From positions 12,216,001 through 12,280,000 of the forward strand of contig CM075990.1 of NCBI GenBank assembly GCA_038087875.1: DNA of 64,000 nt, read 5' to 3'. Positions 1-63,562 of the stretch are shown in pieces (the first letter of the stretch is position 1; every line of letters starts with the position of its first letter). Origin of the DNA: Malacoraja senta (taxonomy: Eukaryota). Under the pieces are notes generated by a model that saw only the letters and a program-made list of their open reading frames with translations, was not told where the DNA came from and did no database searches. Position numbers and translations under genes: made by a program.

Positions 1-544
1 AGTCATTAGACTGGATTAATGCTGTTGGAGCAGCCAGTATAAATGTCCTTAAACATCCTCGGGATGGTATTAACCCGTGCAATTTACAGTCTGTGAGTGA
101 AGCTCCACGGAGCATCACTGATTGACATCAATCTGACATTCTGGATATAAGTGGTCTTTTTTTTACACTAAGTGTATGCCTCGACAAAGTGAAAGGAGCT
201 GCATGTATAATGGAGCTTTCAGGCAGACTAATAAACAAATACTCATCAGTCTGGAGAAGGGTCTCGACCCGAAACGTCACCAATCCCTTCTCTCCAGAGA
301 TGCTGCCTGTCCCGCTGAGTTACTCCAGCATTTTGTGTCTACCTTTGGTTTAAACCAGCATCTGCCGTTCTTTCCTACACACAAGTACTCCCTTCAGCCA
401 TAGCCTTATTTTCTCATGCATTTGTAAATATTGAACATAGTACCCCTCCCGTCCCACCTTCCCCCTCCCCTCATTCCATCACTCACGCGAGACATCGCTT
501 TAAATTTTTTTTAAAGTAATCACAAAGTGCTTTTTGCTCAAGGA

Positions 545-843
545 GGCCCAGCGGTAGAGTTGCTGCCTCACAGCGCCAGAGACCCAGGTTCGATCCTGAC
601 TACGGGTGCTGCCTGTACGGAGTTTGTACGTTCGCCCCATGACATGCGTGGGTTTTCTCCGAGATCTCCGGTTTCCTTTCACACTCCAAAGACGTACAGG
701 TTTGTAGGATAATTGGCTTGGTATAAATGTAAATTGACCCTAGTGTGTGGAGTACAGTGCTAGTATGCAGGGATCGCTGGCCAGCGTGGACTCTGTGAGC
801 CGAAGGGCCTGTTTCCGCTCTATATCTCTAAACTAAACTAAAT
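545..843 (+). mobile_element. HE1/V-SINE-like tRNA-derived SINE
   Basis: tRNA-like head (gcccagcggtagag...ggttcgatcc), conserved body (gagtttgtacgttc...gtgggttttctcc), CR1-like tail (gggcctgtttcc) and (CTAAA)n end. Confidence 0.85.
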
Positions 844-2566
844 TAACTGGCTGGAGTAACTCAACGGGTCAGACAGCATCTCTGGAGAAAAAGAATAGGT
901 AACGTTTTGGGTCGAGACCCTTCTTCAGACTTCTAACTGGGCCCCCTGGTCCTCATCCATTGTTAGTGATCGTGGTTTCAAGATAGGGAACGATTGGCAA
1001 AAATACTTCAGTAATTTCCCTTGAATGGTTTTATGGGATCCTCCACAGGCATGGGGACTGTGTTAGTGACCCTTAGCAGCATCCTAGCTGGGGCCTTGAG
1101 TGGCTGATACGGACATTGCTGTCACCTTGCCTTGTCAATGGCACCACATGAAATTCCAATTATAGCTGAACCAAAATAATTAGTTGTCGACGCAAGGAAC
1201 TGCAGCTGCTGGTTTACTGAAGAAAACACAAAGTGCAGAATAACTCAGTGGGTCAGGCCACATCTCCGGAGTGACTTTTGAGGTCGGGACACTTCTTCAG
1301 AATAATTGTATGGGGGGGGGGGGGGGGGTGGGAAAGCTGGAAGAGAGGTAGGGCTCTTGTCCCGCCCCCACCCCTCTTCCACCCCCCCCCCCCTCACAAC
1401 AATCAGTCTGGCTGGAAAAGTAGCCCATCCACGTTCTCCAGAGATCCTACCTGACTCGCTGAGTTACTGCAGCATTTGTGTCTTTTCAAGATAACTAATT
1501 GTTTGATATGCTGTCCAGAATAATGTCTACATTGGACTTGTGTCGCTGGCTGTAATTCACATGCGACTTTATAATTTGTTAGGTCATCCCAATTGCTTGA
1601 TGTAAATTGTACTTGGCAAGTGATAACTCAATATTCTTGGAGAGAATTGCTGGAGGCATTGGTTTGAGCGAAAATAAAACTGTTTGAGGTTTTGCATTTC
1701 AATTCACCCAGTAATCTGCTGTAACCCACTCGTGTCCTGGCTCCTGCTCCAAGCTGCTCCTGACCCAACAGCTCCCCACTGGCTAACTCCCCCTCCAAAA
1801 CATTTGGATTAAAATGACTGCTGCGATCTACTGGGAATAAAGGCTGGGAATCAAGGGATATGGGGAGAAAGCAGGAACGGGGCGCTGATTTTGGATGATC
1901 AACCATGATCATATTGAATGGCGGTGCTGGCTCGAAGGGCCGAATGGCCTACTCCTGCACCTATTTTCAATGTTTCTATATTACTCTATGACTAGACACG
2001 GAAGTGTTCCAAGATCTCCGTAGCCGTGCTGGGGACGGGTGAGTGCAACTGTGCAGGGAGTTTGTTATCCAGAAGGTTGTGGGTTCAAGCCCCAATGTCA
2101 AGTTGCAGACTGACTGACTCCTGCACTTCACCTGCTGCACTGTCGGAGACACCATGCCATGGAGGATCCTCTGTAACTGAGAGTGTTGGTCAGCAATTTG
2201 GGAGTCAGATCTCTGGAGTGGAGTGTCTATGAACACAGAAACACTCCGCAGCTAAGGTAGTGACTGTCAACGAAGGAACATGAATCGCGCATCAGTTAGT
2301 GACATAAAACACACTTTTGTAGGTGGTTCAGAAGAGGTTTTGCTACTTTTTCCATTATTTCAATTGATTTTAATAATATTTTAATTTACATTGGAAAAAT
2401 ATTTTAACAAATTAAATCATTTTTAAGTTTTGAGATTTCAACTATTCATCGTCTATGGTCAATAAACACTGTATAAAGAAATGGAATGGCCGAGTGCAGC
2501 CCAAGATGTCCAGTCACCAACAGGGTGGTCGGTGGATAGAGTCTCGGGACCCACCTGAGAGCTCTA

Positions 2567-2830
2567 TGATTGCCCCGCCCCCCAGTGTTGCCCCACCTCC
2601 CAGTGTTGCCCCGCCCCACCAGGGTTGCCCCGCCTCCCCGAATTGCCCCGCCCCCGTTGCCCCGCCTCCCTATGTTGCTCCGCCCACGGTTGTCCCGCCT
2701 CCCTATGTTGCTCTGCCCATGGTTGTCCCGCCTCCCAGTGTTGCCCCGCCTCCCCAGTGGTGTTCCCCCTGCCCCCTCTAGCTCCACCTACCAGTGATGC
2801 TCCGCCTCCCCATTGCCCCGCCCCAAGCGT
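2567..2830. repeat. GC-rich minisatellite, ~18-bp unit (TGTTGCCCCGCCTCCCAG-like)
   Basis: About 12-14 degenerate tandem units; explains the Pro/Gly-rich ORFs in all frames. Confidence 0.9.
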
Positions 2831-5084: not shown

Positions 5085-5624
5085 CATTGAGGACCTTTTA
5101 TCAAACTTGGAATCAATATCACTAACTATAGGGCCGAGGGGAAGAGAAAGGAATAAATAAAATATATGTGTGTTTCAATAAAGGATGAAAGTGATTAAAA
5201 ACAAAACAAGTGGGATCATGGAAATGATTTCCAGTATATTTTTTGTTCACATAAAGTGCTGGAGTAAGTCAGTAGGTCAGGCAGCATCTCTGGAGAACAT
5301 GGCTACAAGTCGGGATCCTTCTTCAGACTGATGGGTGATGTTTTAGGTTGCCTCCCTCCTTGCTTTTGTTCACGTCTTCATAGTTAAACTGGACTATGCG
5401 ATCAGGCAACCGAAACATAGCATTGCTCTGATTCCAAATCCATTGCATTAAACACTTCAGCTCACTTCAAAATCCTTGATTAGTTGAACACATCGCAAGG
5501 TAACAGCTGCCGTTGCAGTAGTCTCAGTCTAGTGAAAGAAGATGGGTAGTGGAAAGTGTTGAATGTTTTTAGCTGGACCATCCATCTTGGGGCAGGTAAC
5601 ATTCTGGGCTGTTTATTTCCACAG

Positions 5625-5737
5625 GGAACACCAACAGCATCTTTGCCCTCGACTACATCAGTGGAGCTCTGACTCTCAGTGGACCTCTGGATCGAGAAAA
5701 CCCCCTGTACAGCTCGGGATTTACGTTGACTGTGAGG
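5625..5737 (+). CDS. CDH23: Cadherin-23 internal coding exon (EC3), 113 nt
   Basis: Acceptor tttatttccacAG, donor GTGAGT. Translates (G)NTNSIFALDYISGALTLSGPLDRENPLYSSGFTLTVR, close to recalled vertebrate CDH23 (GNTNSIFALDYISGVLTLNGLLDRENPLYSHGFILTVK). Contains the LDRE Ca2+ motif. Confidence 0.95.
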
Positions 5738-6615: not shown

Positions 6616-9600
6616 TTACAATTGTGTTGCACCATATGATTCCAAAAAGACGACAAATGGAGACCAACTCGTTGTGAATTGGTCAAATTTATCTATTAGG
6701 AGGAATCGCATTTCCTCAAGATGTGCGGTGTCCAACATACTTGCAATCCACATTTTGAGCGTTGGTATTGGTGTTTTTTTCCAAAATTTAAGTATTAATT
6801 TTTTTGCTATTAAACCATAATTAAAAAATAATTTTTGAGATGGATTCAGTTTATTCCCATCTTCCATTACCCCAAATATAATCAATTCATTATTAGGTTC
6901 CATTTTTATCTTAAATAATTTTGTGAATATTTCAAAAATATCACTCCAAAATCTGTAAAGTTGTATACAGGAAACAAAAGAGTGTGTTATAGTTGCATCT
7001 TGGGTTAAACATTTATCGCAAGTGGGGAATATATTTGGGTAAAATTTATTTAATCTTGTTTTTGAGTAATATAATCTATGTAAAATTTTAAATTGAATTA
7101 GATTATGTCTTGCATTAATCGAACATTTGTGAATGTATGTCAAATACTTTTCCCATGTAACCTTCGTAATTTTAATATTAATTCCCGTTCCCACTCTTCT
7201 CTAATTACTTCTGTCGCTGGTAAATCTATATTTAAAATACTATTATATAAATATGATATTAACTTTTGTGTATCAGCTTTAATATTCATTACTTCTTCCA
7301 ATAAATCAGGAATTATTTTTTGATATCCTTGTATGTATGTCTTCAGGAAATTGCAAATCTGAAAATATTTAAAATAATGATTGTTTTTCAATTTAAATTT
7401 TAATTGTAATTGTTGAAATGATAGTAAATCTCCCATTTCATACATGTCCCCGATCCTTTTAATTCCTAACCTTTCCCATTGATTATATATTTTGTCCATA
7501 AGAGATGGTTTAAATAAAGGATTATTCGCTATTGGTGTTAACAATGATAGGTTTCTTAATTTTAAGGATAATTTTATTTGTTTCCATATTCTTATTGTAT
7601 CCTGTATAATTGGGTTCTTCTTATATATTGTATTGTTCATTTTTTTCGGGGAGAAGAGGATTGTTCCTATATTACAAGGGAAACAATCCTCTTTCTCCAT
7701 TTTTATCCATTCTGTCTGTTGGGTAGAACTATCCAACCAATAAATTATATTTTTAATATATATTGCCCAATAGTAATACAGAAAATTCGGGAGTGAAAGT
7801 CCCCCGACATCTTTTGGTTTACATAAGTGTTGTTTTTTAATTCTATGTGATTTATAGTCCCAGACAAAATTAGTAGTATTAGAGTTTAATTTAGAAAAAA
7901 AATATTTTGGTACATATACTGGTATAGACTGAAATAGGTATAATAACTCTGGTAGAAAGATCATTTTTATAGCGTTTATTCTACCTATTAATGATAAAGG
8001 AAGTGTTTTCCAAAATTTAATCATTATATTAAGTTTATTTATTAAAGGTATAAAATTGACATTGAATAAAGCTTTATGTTTTCTAGTAATCTGAATACCC
8101 AGATATTTAAATTTTTCTGTTGCTATTTTAAAGGGGAACTTCAGTAAGTGTGTAGATTCTTGAGGTTTTAACGTCATGATTTCACTTTTGTTCCAATTTA
8201 TTCTATATCCAGAAAAGGACCCAAATTCCTCTATTAAGTTTAATAAATTTGGTATGCTCGTTTGTGCGTTTGTTATATATAACAGAATATCGTCTGCATA
8301 TAATGAAATTTTATTATTTGAGTCCCTAGTATTATAACCCTGAATATTCGGATGGCTTCTTATACTTTCAGCCAAAGGTTCTATCATAAAGGCAAATAGC
8401 AGGGGTGATAAAGCACATCCCTGCCTATTACCCCTTGATAATTGAAATTTTTGAGATAACATACTATTAGTTAATATTCTTGCCATCGGTTTATCATATA
8501 ATAATTTCACCCATGTAATAAAATTCTCTCCCATATTAAATTTTTGTAATACTTTGTATAAATACTGCCATTCTACCTGATCAAATGCTTTCTCTGCGTC
8601 CAAAGAAATAATTGATATGTCTTCTTCCTCCACTTTATGTGAGTACATTATATTAAACAGGCGTCTCAAATTATTAAATGAATATCTTTTGGGGTATAAA
8701 CCCCGTTTGATCAGGGTTTATCAATTTACTAATATATTTGCTTAGTCTTCTGGCTAGAGTCTTTGCTAAAATTTTCTGATCTGTATTTAAAAGTGATATA
8801 GCTCTATATGAGCCCGGGTCCTCTAGATCTTTATCTTTCTTTGGAATAAGTGTGATAGCTGATTCTGCTAATGTTTCAGGTAGTTTATTTTCTTTAAAAG
8901 CGTGAGTATATAAATTAAATAAATAGGGAGTCGTTATCTCATGAAATTTTTAATAAAATTCATTACTAAAACCGTCTGGTCCCGGTGTCTTACCATTTTT
9001 CAACGATTTTATTGTTTCACCTATTTCTTCGAATGTAATTTGCGCTCCGAGTTCCTCTTGTTCCAAAAGGTCAAGTTTTGGAAGATTACAATTATCTAAA
9101 AAATATATAATTTTACTATCTTCTATTTTAGTTTTTGATGTATATAAATTTTGATAAAATTGAGCAAATCTTTTATTAATATCTTTAGGTAGTATTAGTA
9201 ATTCACCATTCTCTGATTTAATTTTGTTTATAGTATTTTCTTTTTCTTGTTTTTTCAGTTGGCGCGCTAACAGCTTATGTGGTTTATCATCAAACTCAAA
9301 ATGTTCCTGTTTTGTAATTTGGAATAATCTTATTACTCTTGCCGAGAGAATTCGATTAAGTTTAAATTTCAGTAATATTATCTTATTATGTTTATCTATA
9401 GTGGAATCTTTAGCATTATCTAACTCTAACTGTCTTATTTCTTGTTCTAACAACATTTGTTCTGTTTTATTCTTTTTATTTTGAAAAATTTCATATGAAA
9501 TTATAATTCCTCTAATAAATGCTTTAAAAGTTTCCCATAGTAAAGAAGGCGAGGTATCTGGTGTATCATTTATCTCAAAAAATAATTTAATTTGTTGTTT

Positions 9601-10422
9601 TAAGTATTGATAACCTTGTAAGTCATTTAAGATATATGTATTAAACCTCCAAAAAAAGTTTTTACCCGGCATTCCCTCAAATTTTACTGAAAGAGTCAAC
9701 GGAGAGTGATCAGAAATACTACTAATGTGGTATGTTGGATTAATTGTATATGGCATTAATTTCATATCCACTAAAAAATAATCGATTCTTGAATATGTTT
9801 TATGTACCGAAGAGTAAAACGAATAATCCCTTCCTACTGGATTAGCAGATCTCCATACATCTGTTATATTAGTATTTTTTATATATGTATTTAGAAGTTC
9901 ACTAGTCTTAGATTTTAAATTACTCCTTCTTTGTTTTACTGATTTGTCTAAGTATGGATCTAAAACACAGTTGAAATTCCCCCCTATTATCACATTTTGA
10001 TAATTAAACTCTAATATTTTATCTATGATTTCATCAAAAAATTGAGGGTTATCAAAATTCGGAGTGTAAATATTTATCATAGTTATTGGGGTAGCATAAA
10101 TTTCTCCCGAAACTATGATGTACCTTCCCTCTTTATCTGATATAGTATTCTTTAATTTAAAAGGTATACCTTTTCGAATAAGAATAGCCATACCTCTAGA
10201 TTTAGAAGTAAATGATGAATAATATGTTTGACCTATCCACTTCGCCTTTAATCTCATTTGTGTTTGCTGTTTCATGTGGGTTTCTTGCAAGTAAATTATG
10301 TCGCTTTTCAAAGATTTTAGGTGAGCAAAAATTTTACCCCTCTTTATTGGTTCATTGGCACCCCTTATATTCCAACTACAGAATGTGATTCCTCCATTCT
10401 TTATTTGTCTATCGTCTTGCAT
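6616..10422 (-). pseudogene. L1 ORF2 (APE endonuclease, RT, C-terminal Cys domain), disrupted
   Basis: EN motifs SWNIRG, LQETH, SRIDY, SDHSP; RT motifs LDAEKAFD, QGCALSP, YADD; C-terminal CDKC..H..C. In-frame TAA at 8950-8952 and frameshifts near 8690 and 7165-7190. Confidence 0.92.
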
Positions 10423-11384
10423 TGTATATCAAAGTAGTATTCTTGAATCATATGGTGCAAACAAATACCTCAGAATTCTGGGTAGTCATTCCAAGTTTTA
10501 AAGTTTATATTACATCTCCTTCTCCAAAAGTACCTTAGATAAAGAAAGAAAAATTGTGATTTAAAGTTGATTACACAAAAACTAAGCAAATACAAATTTA
10601 TATAGTGATTTTTAAAAAAAAGTGAAGTTAAGGTATCTAAGAGAAGATACCTTAAAGACAAATAGCCACCTAAGGTGGCAAAAAATGTATGGACTTCCAT
10701 TGGTGTTATTTTACATTGAACTCCAATCCCTTATTAACACCTCATAAAAAACTACAGACCGTCTCATATCTTGTTTATTCTTATTTAAATTTATCAAACT
10801 AGCACTAGTAAAAAGCAAAAAGACAGAGAAAAAATATAAAAAAGTAAAAAGAATAAAAAATAAAAACCAAATATAAAACACAACATATTCTCAGTTCTAT
10901 AAGTATTTATACCTTTCCAATTTATCTAACCAACTACCATACGAGCAGGTACCGAGGGGTTAACCTCATTCCTGGATCTTTTCCAAGTTTATGTTGCGTT
11001 CCCACACAAGAAAAATACATTAGTAATATTATAGACATTTTGGTTAATTACTATTTATAAGCAATGGTTTATTCATGATTTGTTCATATTTACTACATAC
11101 ACTCACAAATCATTAGTATTATTAAATTTGTTAAATTAGTTGGTTAATTATAATTAGAATATAATAGTTAGATATTTTCTTAAATCAAGTTAGTATTAAT
11201 ATTATCTCATCCATGTTCCTTATACAGTATCTTCAACATCCTTTTGTTTATCTTTGTGCTTTTCATTCAAGGTGAAACATGGACAATGTTCTCAAATACA
11301 CATTCCAGACAGATAAGCTCGGTAACTGTCTGGAAAAATCCACCATCTTAGCCAGTTCCAACTCTATCTTAAAAGTTAAAAAAT

Positions 11385-12467
11385 TCAATGTTCCTCCTCT
11401 TCGACATCTTCTTCCGATGTTTTCGATGCTTTTCTCACGATATCTTCTGCATACTTAAATGCTTTTTCGGGATCCATAAATGAGCGCTCAGTTCCGTTAT
11501 AAGTAATTTTCATTTTTGCTGGGAAGACCACCCCATATCTGACCTTGGATATTCCTCCCAGTATGTTTCTTGTCTGTGTAAACAAGTTCCTTCTCTGGAC
11601 GACCTCCGGAGGATAATCACGGAAAAATCGAATATTATCCCCACGATATGTCAAATTCTCCCCATGAACAATCTTATTCAGTATAAATTCCACTGAAGAA
11701 ATATCGAGAAATTTCACAATTATCTGTCTTGGAGCAGCATTTATGCCTCTTGAGACACGTCCAACTCGGTGAACAATATCTATTCTTAATTCTTCCGGCA
11801 GTTTAAAAACATCTTTGAGTAAGTCAGCAACAAAAGTACGTGTTTGAGATACATGTCCTTCTCGCCCTTCTCTTACTCCAACAATTCTCAAATTCTGCCT
11901 TCTCGATCTCGCTTCCAAGTCCAAACATTTGTCAGTCATCCTTGCAAGTTTTTCTTCTTCAGCTTTCTTTGATTTTTTCAAACTATTTATTTCCGTAATC
12001 ATCTCTTTCATATAATTTTCCATCTCTTCCATTCTCTCAGCAATGTCGCCCATCTTAGCATTTACACCAGTAAATTTCTTATTATAATCATTTTCGATTC
12101 TAACAAATTCTGATTTAAGTTTTTTATCAAACTCATTATGTTGCTTCTTCAGCTCCTTTAACTCAGCACAAGCACCATCAATTTTATGAGAGAATAGCTC
12201 CATATTAGTCTCCATACTCTGCATCTTAATCTCCATACTCTGCATCTTTTCCAGTGTTGTATTAATTGTAGCAGTCATATCTAAAAGCATTTGCTTTACC
12301 TCCTTCTCCTTCTTTTCTCCTTTTGCAGCCATTTCCAGCACAGCTCCTTGGCTGTAAGACTCTTCTTCTGAGCCTTCTTCTGTTGTTTGCAGAGTATCCA
12401 ACACTTTTTCAAGCTGGAGACTTATAGTAGATTTCTTGGGTGCTCTGGAGCTTTTCTCTCTTCTCAT
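11385..12467 (-). CDS. L1 ORF1p (coiled coil + RRM + CTD), intact 360 aa
   Basis: Long heptad region followed by DLEARSRRQNLRIVGVRE, HRV, PRQIIVKF, IRFFRDYP and FPAKMKI motifs typical of L1 ORF1. Confidence 0.9.
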   Translation of the reverse strand: MRREKSSRAPKKSTISLQLEKVLDTLQTTEEGSEEESYSQGAVLEMAAKGEKKEKEVKQMLLDMTATINTTLEKMQSMEIKMQSMETNMELFSHKIDGACAELKELKKQHNEFDKKLKSEFVRIENDYNKKFTGVNAKMGDIAERMEEMENYMKEMITEINSLKKSKKAEEEKLARMTDKCLDLEARSRRQNLRIVGVREGREGHVSQTRTFVADLLKDVFKLPEELRIDIVHRVGRVSRGINAAPRQIIVKFLDISSVEFILNKIVHGENLTYRGDNIRFFRDYPPEVVQRRNLFTQTRNILGGISKVRYGVVFPAKMKITYNGTERSFMDPEKAFKYAEDIVRKASKTSEEDVEEEEH

Positions 12468-14074: not shown

Positions 14075-14480
14075 GGTGACACGGAGGCACAGCAGTAGGG
14101 CTACTGACTTACAGCTCCAGAGACTCGGCTTGGATCCCGACTGTCCGTACAGAGTTTGTACGTTCTCCCAGTGACCTGCGTGGGTTTTCTCCGAGATCGT
14201 CGGTTTCCTCCCACACACTCCAAAGACGTGCAGGTTTGCAGGTTAATTGGCTTGGTGTAAATGTAAAAAAAATTCCTAGTGTGTGTAGGATAGTAGACAA
14301 AAGTGCTGGAGAAACTCAGCGTGTGCAGCAGCATCTATGGAGCGAAGGAAATAGGCAACGTTTCGGGCTGAAACCCTTCTTCAGACTGAGGATAGGATAG
14401 TGTTAGTTTACTAGGACCGCTGGTCGGTATGGATTCGGTGGGCCGAAGGGCCTGATTCCCCGCTGTATCTCTAAACTAAA
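14075..14480 (+). mobile_element. HE1-like SINE interrupted by a Penelope-terminus module (about 14294-14389)
   Basis: SINE head, body and tail present; TAGGATAG is repeated on both sides of the insert. Confidence 0.8.
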
Positions 14481-36579: not shown

Positions 36580-36615
36580 GCACTGAAGAAGGGTCTCGAC
36601 CCGAAACGTCACCCA
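36580..36615 (+). ncRNA. Minimal hammerhead-ribozyme motif in a Penelope terminus (representative sense-strand copy)
   Basis: CTGAAGA-A-GGGT(CTCG)ACCC-GAAAC-GTC: CUGANGA core, stem II, GAAA, palindromic ACGT mini helix III and GUC triplet. Helix I is very short. More than 20 related copies occur on both strands. Confidence 0.65.
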
Positions 36616-46072: not shown

Positions 46073-47005
46073 ATGAACGATAGTTGATTGTCACATGTGA
46101 CAGGTCATAGTAATATTCTTTGTTTTTAGAGTACCCAAGGTATGCAAAGAGTCACCACAGAAAGGGCGCTGATAAGGTTACAAGATTCTTTCTGTCCATC
46201 TTGTTGCCAAATGTCGGCCTCGCTGTCATCGTCCGTCCTGAAAAGGACGCAAGCTTCCGGCGACAATCAGTGGAAGCCATCACTTGTAATCGATGATGGT
46301 GGTAGCAGAATTAGCTCGGGATACATCCATTTTCCAGCCCCGCAACGATGATTTTTTGTGGATTATGAATCCTTTATGAAATTCTGAATCTTTGGAACTC
46401 GTAACCCCAGACAGCCTTCATTTGGTCTGTTTTCCTCTCCTGCTCCAGCAGATAGCGAGCTCCGTGTTGTCAGCAGCTGCGAGATACTTCACGGTCGAAT
46501 CCTCCAACAAAACGTCGCTCACTCATTCTGTTAGTCTGTTTCAGAACTCGTCATTTCCAGCTGTCATCGTTTGGGTTCAGCCTTTCTTATTTTATTTGTT
46601 TAGGCAGGCATGTCCCACAGCCTCACCATTCACAATTCAACTTACTGTGCACTGTGTAATTGTTCTAATTAACTCACCTAACTTGCCTTATCAGAGACAA
46701 TCACTTTTACTCATCCCTCCCCCATTTTCTCTGACAATGGAAGCTAAATTATTTTCCTATCTTTGCCAATTCAAACATCGAAACCTGCACCTGAGAGATT
46801 AACTATTTATCTTTCCACTACTGCCTAACCTGCTGTCTCTTGCATATCTCTATGGTCTTTGTAATAGGTAGCGCAGATTTAGTTTAGTTTAGAGATACAG
46901 TGCGGACACCGGTCCTTCGACCAGCGATCCCCACATATTAACACTATCTCACACACACTGGGGACAATTTTTACATTTTCCAAGCCAATTTACCTACATA
47001 CCTGT

Positions 47006-47493
47006 TTAAGCAGGAACTGCAGATGCTGGAAAATCGAAGGTAGACAAAAATGCTGGAGAAACTCAGCGGGTGAGGCAGCATCTATGGAGCAAAGGAAATA
47101 GGCAACGTTTCGGGTCGAGACCCTTCTTCAGACTGATGTGAGGGTGGGGGGTGCGGGAGGAAGAAAGGAAGAGGTGGAGCCAGTGGGCTGAGGGAGAGCT
47201 GAGAAGGGGAAGAGAAAGTAAAGACTACCTGAAATTAGAGGTCAATGTTCATACCGCTGGGGTGTAAACTGCCCAAGCGAAATATGAGGTGCTGCTCCTC
47301 CAATTTACGGTGGTCCTCACTCTGGCCATGGAGGAGGCCCAGGACAGAAAGGTCAGATTCGGAATGGGAGGGGAGTTGAAGTGCTGAGCCACCGGGAGAT
47401 CAGGTTGGTTATTGCGAACCAAGCGGAGGTGTTGTGTGAATCGATCGCCAAGCCTATGCTTGGTCTCACCGATGTGGAGCAGCTGACACCTAG
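47006..47493 (-). mobile_element. Penelope-like 3' fragment nested in a SINE
   Basis: Encodes CQLLHIGETKHRLGDRFTQHLR...VAQHFN. Flanked by an ~18-bp imperfect duplication of SINE sequence. Confidence 0.85.
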
Positions 47494-49825
47494 ATTTACC
47501 CACGTACCTGTACGTCTTTGGAGTGTGGGAGAAAACTAAAGATCTCGGGGAAAACCCACGCAGGTCACGGGGAGAACGTGCAAACTCCATACAGGCAACA
47601 CCCATAGTCGGGATCGAACCCGGGTTTCCAGCGCTATAACACCATGGTCGAGTGAATGAATAATCTGCACGCAGTATGATAGAAGTATAGTTCTCAATGG
47701 TTGCTCTGCCATCGAACTACCAGATGCTCACCACCAGACTCAGGAACAGCTTCCTCCCCTTTTCTATCAGGTTTCTGAACAGTATGGGTCTCGACCCGAA
47801 ACGTCACCTATTCCTTTGCTCCATAGAAGCTGCCTCACCCACTGAGTTTCTCCAGCTTTTTTGTCTACCATAACCCAGGGTACCTTTTGATTTGCCACTA
47901 CCCCAATGTGGACATTGGACTTTGTCTATGAAACAGGTGCGCTACAATGCTATCTGAACTATATTTCACACTTTGTCTCTTCTCCTGTGCTCTACCTATT
48001 GTACTTGAATTTGGCTTGGTTTTATTTTATGTGGTATTATCTGATTTGATTGGATAGCATGCAAAGCAAAGCTCTTCACTGTACCTTGATGTGACGATAA
48101 TGAATCTAAAAGCTAAAGTAATTCTGCCGCACAGTTTTCACTTTTGGCAGCTTTGTTACCTTTCTTTGGCACATTTACTGAATTCTGAATCGGGATTCTT
48201 GGATTCATTTGCTCCTCCATCTCATTTTCTAAATTTTCCAAGGGTTGCGTAACCTCCTCCAACCAAAATACACCTTTTCATCATTTAGTTTAGTTTCGAA
48301 ATACAGCGCGGAAACAGGATCTTCGGTTCACTGAGTCGGAGCCGACCAAGGATCCCCGCAAAGGTACACTATCCCACACACACTTGGGGACAATTTAGTA
48401 TTCTACCAGGCCAATTAACCTACAAATCTGCACTCTTTGGAGTGCATGAGAAAACCGGAGCAAACCCATGCAGGTCACGGAGAGAATGTACAAACTCCAT
48501 ACAGTCAACACCCGTAACCATCTTGCCAACGAGGGTTTTGTCACTGCAGAAGAATCTGTCCCTAGATAGACAAAAGTGCTGGAGAAACTCAGCGGGTGCA
48601 GCAGCATCTATGGAGCGAAGGAGATAGGCAACGTTTCGGGCCGAAACCCTTCTTCAGTTTTATAGATTATTTGGCTTTGGTAAAATTGTAAATTGTCCCT
48701 CGGATGTAGCATAGCGTTAGTGTATGGGGTGATTGCTGGTCAGCACAGACTTGGTGGGCCGAAGGGACTGTTTCCACGCTATCTCTTGAAACTTTAGAAA
48801 AACATTGGCTTTTGAAAATTGTCCCTTCTTCAGACTGATGAAGGGTGTGGGGAGGGGGGTGGGGGAGCGGGGAGAAGATTTTCCAGCATCTGCAGTTCCT
48901 TCTTAAACAGGTAATTTCCCTAGATTGGAATGGCCTGATGCCAAGCTCCCTTTCAGCATTCTCTAATATCCTTCAGTTTGTCGCTAGTGTTTGCTTTTTA
49001 CAGGCTCATGTATAAACATGCATGCCTTTGGGTCTCAATTAGGAATGGTGCTGTGTATTCACATCCCATTACCAAGGGAGTAATGGAAATCTGCTGTATG
49101 ATTGAGTAGTTTAGATTCATTTATTAAGATACGTAATTGGAACCAACTGTACATTCTGATACCAAATGCAGGCGCTTTGCTGACTGCCAGTGTTGCATGC
49201 TGTAGTTTTGGAAAAGAACACAAATGTGGCTGGGTTCAAAGGTTCTTTATTTGTGACATACACCAATTGTTGTAGTGAAATGCAGATTGCCATTGCAGCT
49301 CATCAAAAAGAATACAACATAACAATAATAAAGAAACTTAAACATAAAAACATCCCCCCACAATGGTTCCCATTATGAGGGAAGGCACAAAGTCCAGTCC
49401 CCATCCCCATGTCCACCCATAGTCGGGCCTATTGAGGCCTCCGCAGTCGCCTTTACGGAGGCCCAATGATCCAGGTCCTTCTCGCCGGATGTTGGTGCTC
49501 CGGTGTCGGGAGAATCCTCTCAGCGGCATGGGATACCTGGAACGGCCGCTTCCTTACCCTGAAAAGCAGTTCCCCCCCACCCCCCCACATAAAAAAGACT
49601 AAACCTCCAAAAACAAAACACTTTAACTCACTAAAAATAAGAAAAAGAGGTGAAAAAACGGACAGCTGCAGGCTGGGCAGCCATACCCATACAGGACGGC
49701 GCCCCCTGTTTCATAATTTGTCCAACTCATGTCTTTTACAGTGAAATAGTTTTAAATACAGCAGAGCCTTGGAGCATTGAGACAAATTTGTAATTGAGTG
49801 TTGTGAATGGACAGTGTTTGAAATG

Positions 49826-50354: not shown

Positions 50355-50591
50355 AGGGCCTGTCCCACTTTCACGACCTAATTCACGACCTTTTTTACTC
50401 GTGGACATTTTTCATCAGGCTAGAAAAACGCCCCGAGCTACTTGATGCCACGAGTACCTACGACTAGCATCACGGCCTGCTACGACCTACCTACGACCTC
50501 CTACGGCCTCATGACGACCATGCTGCGAGTATGAGTCAAGGGCAAACTCGGCAGAGGTCGTGAATTAGGTCATGAAAGTGGGACAGGCCCT
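50355..50591. mobile_element. PIF/Harbinger-type MITE
   Basis: TIR AGGGCCTGTCCCACTTTCACGACCTAATTCACGACCT; TTA TSD. Confidence 0.88.
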
Positions 50592-51121
50592 TTAGCATCT
50601 CATATTTCGCTTGGGCAACTTACAACCCAGTGGTATGAATATTGATGAGTGTATGAAGGAACTGCAGATGCTGGTTTAAACCAAAGGTAGACACAAAATG
50701 CTGTGGAACTCAGCGGGACAGGCAGCATCTCTGGAGAGAGGGAATGGGTGACGTTTCAGGTCGAGACCCTTTTTCAGAACCGAAGGAACCCAAAGAAGAC
50801 CTGAAGAAGGGTCTCGACCCGAAACGTCGCCCATTCCTTCTCTCCAGAGAAGCTGCCTTTCCTGCTGAGTTACTCCAGCATTTTGTGTCTATCTTTGGTA
50901 TGAATATTGATTTCTCTAACTTCAAGTAACCCCTGCATTCCCTCTCTCTCCAACCCTCCCCCACCCAAGTCACACCAGCTTCTCACCTAGCAAAAGCCAA
51001 CAAAGGCCTGTTGCCCTTATCATCGTTCCTTTTTTGCATATCTTTCATTCATTTGTTCTATATCTCTCTACTTCCACGTCTATAAACTCTCATTTCCCTT
51101 TCCCCTGACTCTAGTCTAAAC

Positions 51122-51530
51122 CAAAGATCCTATAGCGAGCAAGATAGACCACTCGACGAAAAAGACGTAGTACGGTCATGGGCAGATTCATGGGTAATTT
51201 AAGGCCCCATTTCCGTAACCGGCTTCCATCTCCGCACCAAAGATCCCATAGCGGAGCAAAGATACTAGTGCGGAGACGGAAGGCGGTTACGGAAACATCC
51301 TCGTAAAAATAAAAGTTATTTGGTAAAAATCTTCTCATTTTCAGAATTTAAATTTATTAACACAAACTGTTCCCCCGCCATAACGTTGATTACACTGCGA
51401 GTCGGGTCGGGTCGGGTTGGGTTACGGAAATGGATGAAAAAAAGGCCCACGTTCTGTTCCGTTGCGTACTACACGTCAGCACATTGCATTTAGCAGGAGT
51501 GGTCTATCTTGCTCCACTATAGGATCTTTG
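51122..51530. mobile_element. MITE with ~32-bp TIR and 8-bp TSD (hAT- or P-like)
   Basis: TIR CAAAGATCCTATAG(C/TG)GAGCAAGATAGACCACT; flanks GTCTAAAC/GTCTAAAG. Interrupts a Penelope terminus. Confidence 0.8.
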
Positions 51531-51794
51531 GTCTAAAGGTCTCGACCTGAAACGTCACCCACTCCTTCTCTCCAGAGATGCTGCCTGTCCCGCTGAGTTA
51601 CTCCAGCTTTTTGCCTCTGTTGACAATTGAAGCCTCTTGACTCTTCTGTCTTGAGGCAGTGTTTGGGGGTGGTGGCGATGATAGTGGCTGTGTTCTGGGG
51701 TGCCGGGGTACCCCGGGTCCCTGAACCTTCACCAAAAGTGCAGTTTGAGTCCACTCGTTTCACACACCAATTTCTTCCTCCGTCCCACAAACAG

Positions 51795-51953: not shown

Positions 51954-54900
51954 GTGAGTACCACTTATTTTGTTTTGGAACAGCAAGTTAGGAAATAGTT
52001 TTATGCGGAGTGAGATGATTTTCCCCTGAAGAAATGCAGTAAATGTTCTTAAGCGGTTGACAAGAAATTTAAAAATGGTGTTACCTGGATCTTCCAATAC
52101 TCGACGACACAAGGAACTATAGATGCTGGAATCTTGAGTAGGTTTCAATGTGCTGGAGTACCTCGCTTCTGAAGAAAGTTTCCAACCCGAAACATCACCT
52201 ATCAATTCCCTCCACGGATGCCGCCTGACCCGCTGTGTTACTCCATCATATTCTTCCAATGCAGTCCACGTTGTTGGTCATATGCATGCCTTGATCTGCT
52301 TACTACTTTGCCAAGAAGTGAGAGAAAGTAATGATTTTGATGAGATGGTTTTTAACAAACAGGTAAATTAAATGCAAGGGTCTTTGAATTATTCTAGTCC
52401 TCATATTGTCTATGACGTTTGCCAAGAAACATCAGGGAGCTCTGATATTCCTTGTGAGGTGCTTGTTGCTGCTGCACCTGCAGGTCTATCGAAGAAGCTT
52501 TTCCTTTGTCCTCTTCTGAGAAATAGTGGTCACTTCCAGTTGTGGTTGGTAATTATTGCCGTGAGAGTAGTTCACTCGTTACACAAATTTGATGTTGAAT
52601 GGATATTTTCCAACACTCTCCAAGAATTTGATATAAGGAAGGAAGAAAGTCTAACAAAGATGGGCCACCGTGGGATCTACAGATGGTCTTAACAAATAAT
52701 AATTTTCTGGAATTGTACCGCATCCTGTGAAATCAGACGCATTGGAACTGAATCTAAATCAGGGAACATTGTTGTGTTAATTATGGTCCATTTCAAGAAA
52801 TTTCTGGTTCAATTAGTGGCTGGTGTGTGTTGGTTTTTTTTAAAGGAAAATAGAATAGGATGGGACACCTGTTGAAATTGTCAGCAGTACATGTGTGCAA
52901 TAATTTATGGTACGGTTGATATTTTTAGTACAGGCTGAGCAGATGTTATCCTTTATCAAAATAATAGGAAGAAAGAAATAATTGTTTAGTTTAGTTTAGT
53001 TTAGAGATACAGTGCGGAAACAGGCCCTTAGGCCCACCGAGCCTGCGATCCCCACACATCAACACTACCCTACATACACTACCCTACGCACATTAACACT
53101 ACCCTACATACAATTGTTTTACATTTTACATGTTGTTTTGTTTAGCATGATGTGTTTTACAATTCACATTTATACCAAGCCAATTAACCAACCAATCTGT
53201 ACGTCTTTGGAGTGTGGGGGGAAACTGAGGATCTCGGAGAAAACCCACGCAGGTCACGGGGAGAAGGTACAAACTCCGTACAGACAAGCACCCGTAGTCA
53301 GGATTGAACCCGGGTCTCTGGCGCTGTAAGGCAGTACCGCTGCACCACCGTGCCACCCCGGTTCTCTGCGGACACCACTGCTGTGTGGTTCCATTCTATG
53401 TTATACATTTTCCTAAGGCTGAACCGGCCTTTGCAGTTTTATTTTTAACTTACGGTGGGGTTTATGAGCAACAGTCCACACCTTTACTGTGGTTTCAATG
53501 TTACCCATGGTCGCTGAAACATGCACTGTCTTTGTTTTTACCAAGTTTGGTATTTCAGCAGCCTTTGACTAATTTGTCATCTTCAACCCTCCATTAAACT
53601 CAAACCTGTCCAAAACTCTTGCTTGGTCTGTAGCTAGCACCAACTCTTCCATCCAGCTCCCTGTATCGAGTGACCAAACTCTGATCATAAAAACTTGGCC
53701 TTAAATCCCACCCTGGCTCTTGTATTTTTATCTCTATGATTTCTTCCAACGCAACAAGCCTTTGTACCTCTCCAATCCATAGGTCCATGTGATAGGAGCA
53801 GAATATAAAGACAATAGACAATAGGTGCAGGAGTAGGCCATTCGGCCCTTCGAGCCAGCACCGCCATTCAATGTAAACATGGCTGATCATCCCCAATCAG
53901 TACCCCGTTCCTGCCTTCTCCCCATATCCCCTGACTCCGCTATTTTTAAGAGCCCTATCTAGCTCTCTCTTGAAAGCATCCAGGGAACCTGCCTCCACCG
54001 CCCTCTGAGGCAGAGAATTCCCCAGACAAAGATAGCGGAGTCGGGGGATATAGAGAGAAGGCAGGAACGGGGTACTGAGTGTGGATGATCAGCCATGATC
54101 ACATTGAATGGCGGTGCTGGCTCGAAGGGCCGTATGGCCTGCACCTATTGTCTCATTAGGCCATTCGGCCCATCAAGAATTCCTCATCTCCTTCACAAAG
54201 AAGTGTCCTTTAATTCTGAGGCCATGACCTCCAAGTCTCTCCCACCAGTGGAAACATCCTCTCTGCATCTACTCCATCTAGGTCTCCAGTACAATCCAGT
54301 AAAATCATACAGCAGACCTCACCTAGGCAGTATACAAAGAGTCGACTAAGTTACAAAAGTCCATGAGCCACCTTGTTTACAACAGCGAGCATGAAGGACA
54401 GCGTACGTATCAACAGCCTGTGTGTTCATTCCCGTCATATACTCCTCCTGCCTTAACAACAAAACATTTAAATAGGAGTAATGCATATTATTATTTACAA
54501 GCTCATTTTAAAACACTAATCCCATTTTAGATTTTAAATGTTAATTAGTACCACTTTCAGCCGCTCTCAAGAGTTGAGATCTCATTTGAACCACTTGTTA
54601 GAATACTTATAGCCTCATAATCATTCCCAGGTGTCCATTATTTTCTCTGTTCCATTGCAACAATGGTCTGTAAATTTTTACATCAAAATTGCGCTGCTGC
54701 GGCCCGCAAAACAGTGGGGGGTTTGTTTGCTTTTCCAAAGTAGGGGAAGACAGAATTTATTTGTGATTATTTTATAAACAGATGGTTTTGAATTAGGAAT
54801 TGCACACAAGATGGCCACATTTGGCAGGTGTAATTACCTGAAACAGATGCTCAAATTTTCTAATTGCTCAGCCATTAACAAGAATAACGTGGTACCTTCT

Positions 54901-57486: not shown

Positions 57487-57522
<36 letters not shown>
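57487..57522. repeat. (AT)n(AC)n microsatellite
   Basis: Read directly. Confidence 0.9.
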
Positions 57523-58420: not shown

Positions 58421-58620
58421 NNNNNNNNNNNNNNNNNNNNNNNNNNNNNNNNNNNNNNNNNNNNNNNNNNNNNNNNNNNNNNNNNNNNNNNNNNNNNNNN
58501 NNNNNNNNNNNNNNNNNNNNNNNNNNNNNNNNNNNNNNNNNNNNNNNNNNNNNNNNNNNNNNNNNNNNNNNNNNNNNNNNNNNNNNNNNNNNNNNNNNNN
58601 NNNNNNNNNNNNNNNNNNNN
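58421..58620. other. Assembly gap (200 N)
   Basis: Run of N of fixed round length. Confidence 0.99.
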
Positions 58621-60974
58621 TTGTTTGCTGCTTTTGTACTGGGAGATCAATGTAAGCAAACATTGTATACCAGCTATACTCTGGACAATTGCCTTGTACA
58701 TAGGCTGGATGGGAGTTATAAGCCAGATATTTTGTTTCACTGTTGTACTGTAAAACTGATTGCTCCAGGATTTTAAACTGGACTAGTATATGTCTTGTTC
58801 AAGAAGGAACTGCAGATGCTGGAGAATCGAAGGTGGACAAAATTGCTGGAGAAACTCAGCGGGTGGGGCAGCATCTATGGACCGAAGGAAATAGGCAACG
58901 TTTCGGGCCGAAACCCTTCTTCAGATTGTGTAGGAAGGAACTGCAGATGCTGGTTTACACCAAAGATAGACACAAAATGCTGGAGTAACTCAGCGAGTCA
59001 GGCAGAAACTCTGGAGAGAAGGAATAGGTGACGTTTAGGGTTGAGACCAAGAGGTAACTCTCTCTCCCCTGACGCTCAGTCTGAAGAAGCGTCTCGACCT
59101 GAAACGTCAACTATTCCTTCTATCCAGGGATGCTGCCTGACCCGCTGAGTTACTCCAGCATTTTGAGTATAATTGTCTTTTTGGTAGAATTGTTACAGTC
59201 GTTGAGTCACAATGTGGAAACGGGTCCTTTGTCCTATCTAGTCTGCACCAGCATTCTAGCAGGGATGTGTAGAACAAGGAGAATGTCTCTGATACTGAGA
59301 GTCCAAATGCCTTAAGGGAGGGAGGTAACAGCACATTACGTTTCTGTGGTCAGTGTGATGTGTTGTAATTGGTGAGGCTGTGTTATACAAGTTAGTGATA
59401 GGAGCTGAATTAGGCCATTCGGCCCATCAAGTCTACTCCTCTGTTCAATCATGGCTGATGTATCTCTCCCTCCCAACCCCATTCTCCTGCCTTCTCCCCA
59501 TAACCCCTGGCACCCGAACCAATCGAGAATCTATCTATCTCTGCCTTAAAAATATCCATTGACTTGGCATCCACAGCCTCCTGTGGCAATGAATTCAACA
59601 GATTCACCACCCTCTGATATATATGCAAATATATGAACAGAGTAATAACGGCCAACATTACAACAGGCAGAAATGTCCAGGTGTGATTGACACAGGAGGA
59701 GGGTACGAGTTAACAAAGTTGGAGAATTCTGTAGCGACCGATCCTATCATCAGTGAAATGGGATGAGTAGAAGGGTCTCGACCCAAAACGTCGCCTATTC
59801 CTTCAACTTCTTTTGTCTACCTCCGATTGTTCCAGCATTTGCAGTTCTTTCTTAAATATCAGTAGTTACATTGATCAATCATCTTTCTTTTGCAATTGGA
59901 TAAGAATTAGAGGAGAACATTCAGCCCTCAAAACTTGTTCCACTATTCAATTAGATCATGTCTGATTCATACGGTAGCTTTTTACTGCCTTGGTTCTGTT
60001 ATCTTTAATAACTTTAATTCCAGTCGAAGTGGAAAGGAAGGGAAAAAATACACTCCAGTAAGTTGATGATTAGCTGAAATAAATAGAGATATAATCTACA
60101 TTCAAATCTCTAATTCTGGTCTCGCTGCAGCATAATTGCTTCATTATAACCTCTCATAAATCAGGTGACAGTATTATTCCTTGGAAATGGCTTCGCGAGC
60201 CTTTTCACTCATCAATAAGTATAATTTAAGTTTCATGTTTCGCTGTGATTTGAATTTTCAAGCTGTAAGACGGTAGGAGATATTGTTAAATGCCTTGAAA
60301 ATCAGAGCTGTAAAATGGTCGTTTGGTCTGGCCGTTCTGCTGAGATTCGTTAATAGCTGGAGATTAATTTTGTGTTGCAAATTAAAAGGTATTCACTCTA
60401 TTTCATTGCTGCAAAGGTAACATGTTTTGGTTCCATTGTACATCATAAAATGAACAAGCTGGTGCCTGATGTGGTTGAGTTTGTAGCAATTGCTTTCTTG
60501 AGGTAGAAATTGGCCTCTATAAATGACCCCAAGCATTATTTATAGAGGCCAATAAATAACACCTCTATTTACTGTGGGGGAGTTGTGAAAATGGGAGAAC
60601 ATGTAGCGAGTGTGAGTGGGCGATCGTATGGATTCGGTGGGTCGATGGACCTGTTTCCATGCAGTGCCTTTTAATCAAATCATAGGTTCTACATTTAGGC
60701 TTCAATTTAGAGACTTGGCTGTTGCAAACTCTAGTACTGAGGGACTGCCGTGCTGCCTGAGGTGCTGTGTTTTACATGGCTCTCTCAGTTTAATGCATAA
60801 GATGCCATTCTCCTGCTTTGAAGATTGGGATATTCTCCCTACTGCTGCACGATGTTTATTATTTATTCAACGTCACTGCAGCACAGAATCTGTATATAAT
60901 TTCATTTCTGACTGTGGGAGTTTTCTGCACATGTATTGATTCCCCTTAACGGGATTGCCCCCCCCCCCCCCACC

Positions 60975-61190: not shown

Positions 61191-61398
61191 TGGAGGTCCG
61201 AGGCCATCTGGAAATTAGTTTATCTCGGCATCATGTTCGGCACAGACATTGCGGGCAGAAGGGCCTGTTGCTGTGCTGTACTGTTCTACGTTCTATCTTG
61301 GGATAACACTGTGAAGTAGGTTCATGATCCACTCCAGAGGACTCAATGGATGTGGTGGGTGAAGATATGCAGGCGAGACTGGGTGAGGACAGTAGGTA

Positions 61399-62514
61399 TC
61401 TATATAATTAAAAGTCTCATCTTGACCACTTCCTGTCTGCGCTGTAAATTGATTTTAGAAAAAATGCTACCCTGTATTGCTGTGATTTTTGGCCATCTTA
61501 CTCACAGTCCTCCTCTGCTGAGCCAGCCCCAAGGGTTTTTCCCATCGATGAAAAATAAAAAAGTTATGAGTGTTTAAAAAACCGTAAGATCAGCTGATTG
61601 GTCCTCTCGCCTGTCAATCACCGCGATGAAGGAAACGCCCCTTCCGGGAGGGGGGGCAGGACTATAAAACCCCGGATGCCTGGACGTGAGTTAGTCACTC
61701 TGCAAGATCGCGAGGGAGAGGCCGCGATTGTCATTCTAAGCTGTGAATCAACTGAACTGTGAGTCTGCAATGTACTTGCATTAAATGATTTGTTAGCCCT
61801 TAATGACAATGCCATGAGTTGTTTGGCCTGCTGCCCTGTCTGTGCTTGAAAGTGCAATGCTTAATTGGAAATGAAATGAAATGAAATCACAATACCATGA
61901 GTTGTTTGGCCTGCTGCCCTGCCTGTGCTTGAAACTGCAATGCTTTATTTGGTCCGACTGTGTTTGGAAGGAATAAATGCTTTATTAGGTCCGACTGTGT
62001 TTGGAAGGAATAAATGCTTTATTAGGTCCGACTGTGTTTGGAAGGAATAAATGCTTTAATAGGTCCGACTGTGTTTGGAAGGAATAAATGCTTTATTAGG
62101 TCCGACTGTGTTTAGTCCAAAAGTTCCGCTTACTGGACAGGTCCCGCTGATTATGTAATTTCCGGTGAGTGCAGAGGTCGCGCTGATTGCGTAATTTCCG
62201 ATAAGTGCAGAAGTCACGCTGATTGCGGAAGTGCCGCTGACTGCGGAAGCCCCACAGTGGAGAGGTCGCGCTCAGCCATGTGAGTAGATTCACGAAGGGT
62301 TACTGTCATATATATGGTGTGCGAGTCAGTGTGTGTGTATGTGAGTGAGTGTGTGTGTTTGTGTGTGAGTGTATGTGTTTGTGCGAGGTGGAGGATGTGT
62401 GTGAGTGAGTGTGTGTGTGAGTGTACATTGGAATTGGTGGAGAGGTGGAATATTGCATTGGGGGACCAGCCCTCCCGTGTGAAGCTGGGACCCAACGGGT
62501 CCCACTTAGTCTAG
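61399..62514 (+). mobile_element. Non-autonomous Helitron
   Basis: Sits between A and T, starts TCTATATAATTAAAAG, ends CTAG. Subterminal hairpin TGGGACCC-AAC-GGGTCCCA at 62486-62504. No TSD; internal tandem repeats. Confidence 0.85.
61941..62113. repeat. 37-bp tandem repeat, ~4.5 copies, inside the Helitron
   Basis: GGTCCGACTGTGTTTGGAAGGAATAAATGCTTTATTA starting at 61951, 61988, 62025, 62062 and 62099. Confidence 0.92.
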
Positions 62515-62617
62515 TCCTAATTATAAAGACAGGCTTAGTTTAGTTTAGAGATACAGCACGGAAACAGGCCCTTCGGCCCACCATGTCCGCGCCGACCAAC
62601 GATCCCCACACATTGTT

Positions 62618-63562
62618 GTGTTAAAGAAGGAACTGCAGATGCTGGAAAATCGAAGGTACACAAAAATGCTGGAGAAACTCAGCGGGTGCAGCAGCATCTA
62701 TGGAGCGAAGGAAATAGGCAACATTTCGGGCCGAAACCCTTCTTCAGACTGATAGGGGGTGGGGAGAAGAAAGGAAAAAAGGCGGAGGAGGAGCCCGAGG
62801 GCTGGGGGAGGGGATGAGACAACCAGACGGCTGATGAAGGGGAGGGGACAGCAAGGGCTAGCAGAATTGGGAGAATTCAATGTTCATGCCCCCAGGATGT
62901 AGACTGCCCAAGCGGAATATGAGGAGCATTTCCTCCAATTTCCGGTGTTGCTCGCTGTGGCCATGGAGGAGACCCAGGACAGAGAGGTCAGATACGGAAT
63001 GGGAGGGGGAGTTGAAGTGCTGAGCCACCGGGATGTCAGGTTGGTTATTGCGGACCGACCGGAGGTGTTCGGCGAAACGATCGTCAAGCCTCCGCTTGGT
63101 CTCACCGATGTAGATCAGCTGACATCTAGAGCAGCGGATGCAATAGATGAGGTTGGAGGAGATGCAGGTGAACCTCTGTCGCACCTGGAACGACTGCTTG
63201 GGTCCTTGAATGGAGTGGAGGGGGGAAGTGAAGGGACAAGTGTTGCATCTCTTGCGGTTGCAAGGGAAAGTACCAGGGGAGGGGGTTGTATGGGAGGGAA
63301 GGGAAGAATTGACAAGGGAGTTACGGAGGGAGCGGTCTTTGCGGAAGGCAGACATGGGGGGAGATGGGAAGATGTGGTGGGGTCACGTTGGAGGTGGTGA
63401 AACTGACGGAGGATCACTTGTTGTATGTGACTGCTGGTGGGGTGAAAGGTGAGGACTAGGGGGACTCTGCCCTTGTTGTGAGTGGTGGGATGGGGAGAGA
63501 GAGCAGTGTTGCGGGGTATGGCAGAGACCCTGGTGCGAGCCTCATCTATGGTGGAGGAGGGG
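62618..63562 (-). mobile_element. Penelope-like retroelement, 5'-truncated, inserted in a SINE
   Basis: GIY-YIG ORF plus a 3' terminal region with hammerhead core. Flanks on both sides are parts of one minus-strand HE1-like SINE. Confidence 0.9.
62858..63355 (-). pseudogene. Penelope-like GIY-YIG endonuclease domain (truncated ORF)
   Basis: CNRKRCNTC linker; LIYCIRCSRCQLIYIGETKRRLDDRFAEH...VAQHFN...RKLEE...GMN. Confidence 0.9.

Follow-up and report, generated by a model that had tools for sequence, protein, structure and literature searches.

The stretch of DNA analysed here (the window) comprises 64,000 nucleotides of the genome of Malacoraja senta (assembly GCA_038087875.1, contig CM075990.1, positions 12,216,001 to 12,280,000 of the forward strand) and lies within the cadherin-23 gene, CDH23. 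Exons of this host gene are located in it on the plus strand, two of which are described here. The first one (5612-5737) has a cadherin-23 chain as its best phmmer match (E 1.1e-18), and the second one (33173-33379, ends approximate) encodes a cadherin repeat whose residues 2-29 continue the same chain. Cadherin exons extend along the plus strand between -47 kb and +263 kb (window coordinates), and therefore plus is the sense strand. The non-coding DNA of the window contains many copies of a short module that carries a minimal hammerhead ribozyme motif and derives from Penelope-like elements (PLEs). The present work is concerned with these copies, with the elements that gave rise to them and with the way in which they were probably inserted.

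Positions within the module are counted from C3 of the hammerhead core, taken as 0, so that cleavage falls after +27. A regular-expression scan together with a hidden Markov model (HMM) built from 14 window copies was used for the search. The HMM finds 53 module copies or fragments in the window (23 on the plus strand and 30 on the minus strand) and none in any of five block shuffles of it. All 20 module positions named in a first-pass annotation of this DNA are HMM matches on the strand given there. Three of the copies had been described as the ends of GIY-YIG elements, and they are found as described, all on the minus strand. These are a family-B 5'-truncated PLE at 19445-19894 (GIY-YIG C-terminus, untranslated region (UTR) of 117 nt, intact minimal hammerhead and tail; 98% to the full-length element L023), a family-C 5'-truncated PLE at 47003-47494 (part of GIY-YIG, UTR of about 100 nt, intact minimal hammerhead and tail), and the longest PLE copy of the window at 62618-63562 (CX4CxxC linker, GIY-YIG, 110-nt UTR, a module that has lost C15.2, and tail; 96.5% to L023). 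Two further copies linked to an open reading frame (ORF), at 16953 and 28510, are the 3' ends of an old family-D PLE (16834-17326, minus; GIY-YIG C-terminus, UTR of about 295 nt, decayed module) and of a family-A PLE (28418-28786, minus; GIY-YIG C-terminus, UTR of about 216 nt, module). Besides, an internally deleted PLE lies at 18953-19250 on the minus strand, in which the 5' region around a likely splice donor is joined to the last part of the 3' UTR and the module.

Solo modules are found at 241-375 (plus, family A, core broken by A6 to G), 845-931 (minus, start at -3, G12 lost), 14281-14389 (minus, family B, core intact, antisense to CDH23), 25242-25341 (minus, family A, core intact, start at -2), 38348-38456 (minus, start in stem II, with a 14-bp target-site duplication (TSD) at 38348-38361 and 38443-38456), 39814-39919 (plus and thus sense, G16.2 lost, TSD of 10 bp) and 48546-48665 (minus, family B, core intact, without helix I). 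Arms of head-to-head pairs account for 18 of the 53 copies. Such pairs are seen at 29684-29897 (one arm tailed), at 34496-34693 (the junction is the palindrome TCAG(T/A)CTGA, with an overlap of 9 nt) and at 45486-45729 (family B-type, right arm tailed, arms 99% complementary, 12-bp TSD at 45486-45497 and 45718-45729). Another pair, at 50631-50911, lies as an insertion within the end of the ORF of an older PLE, is flanked by a 16-bp TSD (50631-50646 and 50896-50911) and forms a hairpin of -179 kcal/mol that masks its sense core. At 36460-36681 two copies are head-to-head neighbours, and the sense arm, whose core is intact and whose helix I has 0 bp, is predicted to pair with the other arm. Finally, a solo family-B-type module with an intact core on the minus strand adjoins a head-to-head pair at 58796-59175.

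The module is not restricted to this locus. An even sample of eighty evenly spaced 10-kb stretches from contigs C1-C17 (800 kb) contains 360 hits, that is, 4.5 +/- 0.37 per 10 kb, which scales to about 0.87 million copies in the 1.94-Gb genome; module stubs make up about 4.6% of the sampled DNA. A CDH23 region of 384 kb contains 283 hits (7.4 per 10 kb), and the two sets together give 643 hits. Along the first 130 Mb of contig C1, copies with an A before position -3 are much denser than further on, and copies with a G there are evenly distributed.

The hammerhead motif consists of TCAGT (-5 to -1), CUGAAGA, an extra A, a stem II of GGGU/ACCC or GGGU/GCCC with a 4-nt loop, and GAAA-C-G-U-H. A strict descriptor, in which the G10.1-C11.1 pair is built in and four pairs are allowed at 15.2-16.2, was run on 1.18 Mb of fetched DNA. 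It gives 58 matches, all of them within the 643 module hits, and none in five shuffles. Eight of the matches are in the window, six on the minus strand and two on the plus strand, so that the core is intact in 8 of 53 copies and the initial count of more than 20 minimal hammerheads was too generous. Five of the seven sense copies named at that time fail (250, 34592, 37783, 39819 and 59081), and in the other two helix I measures 0 bp (36583) and 1 bp (50801). The nature of the motif was nevertheless correctly recognised: the module is a Penelope-derived minimal hammerhead in which helix III is the palindrome ACGU and helix I has 2 bp. The extra base after A9 is present in 57 of the 58 matches, and the palindrome at 15.2-16.2 is ACGU in all 58, which would allow a dimeric helix III. 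Helix I has 2 bp in 37 matches, 3-4 bp in 3 and 0-1 bp in 18. When four examples were folded, the pairing probability of helix I was below 0.01 and stem II was outcompeted in three of them. An Rfam scan returned no hammerhead match at E values up to 1, and only weak matches of miRNA models on hairpins and G/C runs.

Five subfamily majority lines were derived from the 212 of 643 hits that are long enough. The core CUGANGA ... GAAA ... UH is unchanged in all five, and the G10.1-C11.1 pair is invariant. Within -5 to +29 the lines differ at five positions (+12, +13, +16, +27 and +28), all of them tolerated transitions (rough p 0.01): two fall in loop 2, two convert U-A to U.G and one concerns H17. 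Two-sided changes in a stem do not occur among these lines. Related to this, two stem-II variants with GUC and GUU triplets had been proposed, each keeping the stem paired by different sequence; the variants and triplets do exist, and the changes are one-sided rather than compensatory. Variable positions amount to 5 of 35 in the motif part and 16 of 63 downstream, without clear excess conservation. The pattern of substitutions among subfamilies would modestly support the hammerhead structure. The ribozyme motif appears to be kept in the source elements because the subfamily changes are all tolerated, and cleavage there would take place only as a dimer or with the help of protein.

These features are those of the minimal type I hammerheads of metazoan PLEs described by Cervera and de la Pena (2014, PMC4209133), which share the core boxes, the extra base between A9 and G10.1, the G10.1-C11.1 pair, the palindromic 15.2-16.2 and the location in the pseudo-long terminal repeat (pLTR). 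Most of them are likewise dispersed single motifs from truncated PLEs, and closely spaced pairs on opposite strands occur as well. Both this motif and the stub layout are already known, and the first observation on this DNA is not new in that respect. The differences are a helix II of only 4 bp, a helix I of only 2 bp (S. mansoni has 4-5 bp and D. virilis also 2 bp) and a far higher copy number, exact cores numbering 13,276 for one variant and 19,101 for another genome-wide, compared with about 4,000 and 9,000 motifs in coelacanth and Xenopus.

The parent element can be recognised in the window frame 62858-63382, which matches Pfam GIY-YIG above the cut-off (E 6e-5) and in which the domain is preceded by the linker CNRKRCNTC (CX4CxxC). 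A CX2-5CxxC linker between reverse transcriptase (RT) and endonuclease (EN) is a mark of the Neptune/Nematis type (PMC8557442), and the parent is, judged by this linker motif, an EN-containing (EN+) PLE of that type. EN+ PLEs of this type are alike in having RT followed by a CX4CxxC linker and GIY-YIG, and a partial-tandem pLTR (PMC8557442, PMC3846280). A genome search gave 97,442 first-look candidates; the 150 that were scored are the copy of the window itself and 149 others, for which identities are 96-97% and the longest open frame has 1093 aa. In eight of eight fetched loci the open frame measures 681-1093 aa and contains DKG and YIDD motifs (recognised by eye), and the locus ends in the UTR and the module. 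One of them, L023, is complete, with a 5' pLTR, tail, likely splice donor, ORF and 3' pLTR. The coding parent is very abundant and young. A GIY-YIG C-terminus was found upstream of 36 sampled hits, of which 9 were dropped as neighbouring, nested or distant copies. The 27 kept as parents, out of 643, bear out the earlier statement that the short copies far outnumber those linked to an ORF. These 27 parents belong to all five module subfamilies, and their UTRs (90-340 nt) differ from lineage to lineage but share an ending of (T/C)(C/T)AG-like bases ahead of the core. The module is the terminal 100-135 nt or so, that is, the pLTR end, of abundant GIY-YIG PLEs.

Two 3' ends of the module exist, with and without a tail of about 35 nt. 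In L023 (1802-1915) an ATG at +50 opens a frame of 37 codons that runs through the tail to AAG/GTATGC and likely represents a first exon with its splice donor; this frame may differ in family A. Moreover, in folds of families B and C, positions +47 to +56 (AGAUGCUG) pair with CAGCAUCU in the tail, forming a stem between the two 3' ends. This modelled stem may be an RT-binding or start signal.

The census of neighbouring hits within 150 nt among the 643 gave 138 head-to-head, 22 tail-to-tail and 41 tandem pairs, part of the tandem ones being split hits; a few pairs of the CDH23 region are counted twice owing to local duplications. Arms of head-to-head pairs make up 146 of the 360 hits of the even sample (about 40%). 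The tight-junction set, formed by the 93 of 138 pairs with full 3' ends, was studied further. Exactly one arm is tailed in 68 of these pairs (45 expected, p 5e-6), both arms belong to the same subfamily group in 81 (mean 40 and maximum 55 after shuffling), and 22 are flanked as a whole by an exact TSD of 10-16 bp, against 0-2 in controls. Each head-to-head pair is a single insertion with two 3' ends, because it has one tail, one subfamily and a TSD around the whole pair. In 41 of 62 pairs it is the tailed arm that ends sooner on the 5' side, and 62% of solo copies have no tail. The junctions of the pairs cluster at the self-complementary sites -5, +10 and +15, and exact TCAG(T/A)CTGA junctions number 2,557 genome-wide. 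The inverted-copy layout is already known in EN+ PLEs, which also have a one-sided tail of 30-40 nt, an inverted 5' copy and a TSD (PMC8557442, PMC3846280); what differs here is that both arms are usually about 100 nt long and that the 5' ends pile up at one place.

This pile-up was mapped by alignment to the parents for the 496 of 643 hits with a usable 3' end and flank (266 of 360 in the even sample and 230 of 283 in the CDH23 region). The rate of 5' ends per nucleotide rises from 0.006 at -100 to -51 and 0.010 at -50 to -11 to 0.045 at -10 to -6 and 0.067 at -5 to +7, and then falls to 0.015 at +8 to +24, 0.008 at +25 to +30 and 0.004 at +30 to +69. There is, in other words, an approximately tenfold pile-up at -10 to +7 around the core, on which the even sample and the CDH23 region agree. 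The starts of solo copies peak at -3 and -2. A peak at the cut site would be a relic of cutting in vivo; it was also searched for and is absent, since none of 268 solo copies starts at +26 to +28. The edge is not an artefact of missing templates, because the flanks before it are not UTR-like: they are pyrimidine-rich in 2 of 140 copies compared with 27 of 27 parents, and an all-against-all comparison likewise excluded such an artefact. It was also considered whether TCAG is a splice acceptor placed before the core, which was ruled out for most copies, given that bases -5 to -2 are kept and there is no common upstream exon. Conservation across subfamilies begins at TCAGT even though the UTRs before it differ in length and sequence.

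With a probability that can be put at roughly 0.6, the modules are dead, very short insertions of PLE ends, likely produced by RT running from internal sites to the 5' end of an uncut transcript. RT would start at one of two internal sites and run to the 5' end of uncut element RNA, and the transcript would likely have its first nucleotide at the A in TCAGTC, which precedes the hammerhead core by 3 nt, so that the pile-up of 5' ends would mark the transcription start. Head-to-head pairs could arise when both nicked target strands are used for priming, one at each internal site, the two cDNAs then being joined by microhomology at palindromes around the core such as TCAG(T/A)CTGA. For longer copies, the template would have to extend into the 3' UTR. 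A more specific version of this idea, according to which close to a million copies are 'strong-stop' products of Penelope RT, with priming from two internal sites, extension up to the capped start of the uncut transcript and often the use of both target strands, is put forward tentatively, at a little less than even odds.

Several observations are consistent with a start at this place. TCAGTC is similar to an initiator sequence in which A(-3) would be +1. Initiator-like sites are known in pLTRs (PMC3846280, PMC2377424). Among genome-wide exact matches without a C immediately before A(-3), this position is occupied by G 1507 times, by A 1155 times and by T 1085 times, and the resulting G:A ratio of 1.30 exceeds the 0.78 expected from base composition. 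Such an excess of G, as would be left by a copied cap, lends weak support to this start. The in vitro system of the Anolis Poseidon element PAc (Frangieh et al. 2024, PMC11167929) is similar in many respects: its ORF starts near the hammerhead, two internal RT start sites bound the tail, both target strands are extended, a protein dimer is predicted, and uncut RNA is the main template, the hammerhead being protein-assisted and its cut unneeded for insertion. The priming of both nicked strands proposed above would fit these findings. PAc belongs to another clade, and a genomic pile-up of 5' ends before the core is not described in the main text consulted.

Other data weigh against this explanation. 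The G excess is modest and uneven: it is missing from the first 100 listed matches, which cover the first 76 Mb of C1 (28 G, 44 A and 28 T), and the control position may be skewed by subfamily (18 G and 82 A in the first 100 of 1376). The edge is broad (-5 to +7), and RT could be halted or diverted by any of three features that coincide with it, namely a palindrome, the hairpin of stem II and the point where a C-rich tract ends. Of 312 short copies, only 13 have an exact TSD next to them. The D. virilis element starts far upstream of its hammerhead and an intron separates the two (PMC2377424, PMC4209133), and inverted junctions have been explained in the literature by self-priming, for which an antisense template may be used (PMC3846280). 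In an alternative, the same PLE stubs have a 5' edge that is a structural stop and not the RNA start: RT would stall, or the cDNA would fold back, at the hammerhead hairpin, the TCAG-T-CTGA palindrome or the C-rich tract, and self-priming would make the inverted arm. The clustering of pair junctions at self-complementary sites, the abundance of the exact palindromic junctions and the self-priming already proposed for PLE palindromes (PMC3846280) are in its favour. Nevertheless, solo copies have the same edge, with their peak at -3 and -2, a simple fold-back cannot provide the second arm with a tail, the tailed arm is the one that more often stops short at its 5' side, and the G excess before A(-3) is not accounted for. 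On balance this alternative is considered rather unlikely.

Some information comes from RNA of related organisms, in the form of fragmented polyA reads. Their coverage of the module is at least 20-fold above that of its flanks, about equally on both strands. Loose clusters of ends are seen at -6 to -2 and where the tail ends, and among the positions listed, read starts do not accumulate at the cut site. As fragmented reads of this kind are unable to reveal transcript starts or cleavage, the presence of module RNA is taken only as a sign of passive transcription.

The abundance of the module in the RNA of related species also bears on a different proposal, namely that the short copies are a non-autonomous family similar to SINEs (short interspersed elements) or retrozymes, with an internal promoter, an RT-binding site and short masters of their own and perhaps a cut or circular RNA. 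Short copies exceed long ones by about 5:1 (79 of 496 extend beyond -10), and a sharp common 5' edge is also SINE-like. Metazoan non-LTR (long terminal repeat) retrozymes share with the stubs a type I hammerhead, PLE ancestry, short non-coding units and many monomers (PMC7229834; bioRxiv 10.64898/2026.07.22.740005). On the other hand, those retrozymes form head-to-tail arrays of 150-450 bp with canonical active hammerheads and circular RNAs, whereas the stubs are solo or head-to-head and have lineages in common with coding copies. Tandem module arrays were not found in the window, and tandem neighbours are far fewer than head-to-head ones in the census given above. Short and long copies show equal divergence within each subfamily (212 of 643 hits examined, in small groups), only 1 of 470 column tests in five families reveals a short-specific allele at p<0.01 (again with small groups and limited power), and a lineage made only of short copies was looked for within subfamilies and none was found. 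The lack of 5' ends at the cut site, the many solos without a tail and the RNA reads on both strands also argue against this proposal. The retrozyme-like family suggested in the first-pass annotation is thus unsupported, since arrays are lacking in the window, the short copies match the long ones in subfamily, divergence and alleles, and the coding parent is itself very abundant and young; a family of this kind is regarded as improbable.

The same annotation had stressed that sense copies are transcribed within CDH23 pre-mRNA, from which it could be thought that they act there as ribozymes altering its processing or level. In its favour, the density of modules in the CDH23 region is higher than in the even sample (7.4 vs 4.5 per 10 kb), and intact solo cores between the outermost exons found are 5 sense and 12 antisense (p 0.14). 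Between the same exons, however, there are 114 modules in sense and 116 in antisense orientation; for solos these numbers are 62 and 64 and for intact cores 10 and 14, so that the check for depletion of sense modules found none. None of the sense copies of the window combines the core with a 2-bp helix I, the two intact sense cores being without a full helix I and predicted to pair with inverted neighbours, and helix I hardly forms in any of the four folds mentioned above. Besides, minimal hammerhead monomers were inactive in vitro (PMC4209133). With no strand bias, and with sense copies broken or locked in hairpins, relevance to the pre-mRNA is unsupported, and a ribozyme function of this type is very improbable. 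The genomic stubs would instead decay neutrally and, from their sequences, would not be expected to cut CDH23 pre-mRNA.

Other repeats and features of the region deserve mention. A near full-length L1-type long interspersed element (LINE) lies at 6616-12467 on the minus strand, in AT-rich DNA and antisense in a CDH23 intron. It is frameshifted, and its parts are ORF1 (11385-12467, with a weak match to an L1 RBD-like domain), an APE endonuclease (8950-10428) and RT (7140-8717). An element of about 415 bp resembling a miniature inverted-repeat transposable element, with inverted repeats at its termini (ACCAAAGATCC...) and in its interior, is found at 51117-51535 within the hammerhead core of an older PLE copy, and 50570-51616 holds four nested insertions. 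A second very common repeat with tRNA-like A/B-box motifs, presumably a tRNA-derived SINE, occurs at 540-845, 53100-53300, 63590-63770 and many other places, and often adjoins the module or is interrupted by it. A run of 200 N occupies 58421-58620. Outside the window, local duplications of about 13 kb inside CDH23 (C14, about 12437000-12452000 and 12487000-12512000) are either genuine or an assembly artefact, and one of them repeats two cadherin exons (window offsets 221505/234476 and 222447/235418).

In the literature, no title or beginning of an abstract matched Penelope twin priming, strong-stop products or a skate or chondrichthyan Penelope; subscription papers and Repbase/Dfam entries lie outside this scope. 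On how PLEs integrate and on the role of their hammerhead, hundreds of sampled insertions provide quantitative data by which models can be told apart: the cut site lacks 5' ends, these ends lie at an initiator-like site, and each inverted pair has one tail and one subfamily. Stubs that occupy about 4-5% of the sampled DNA, and that place hairpins of about 100 bp in many transcripts, matter for the annotation of cartilaginous-fish genomes. If the strong-stop interpretation is true, the transcription start of a PLE would be mappable from DNA alone, hammerhead-cut RNA would not be the usual template in vivo, and the head-to-head layout of PLEs would result from the priming of two strands by a dimeric protein and not from self-priming on antisense RNA.

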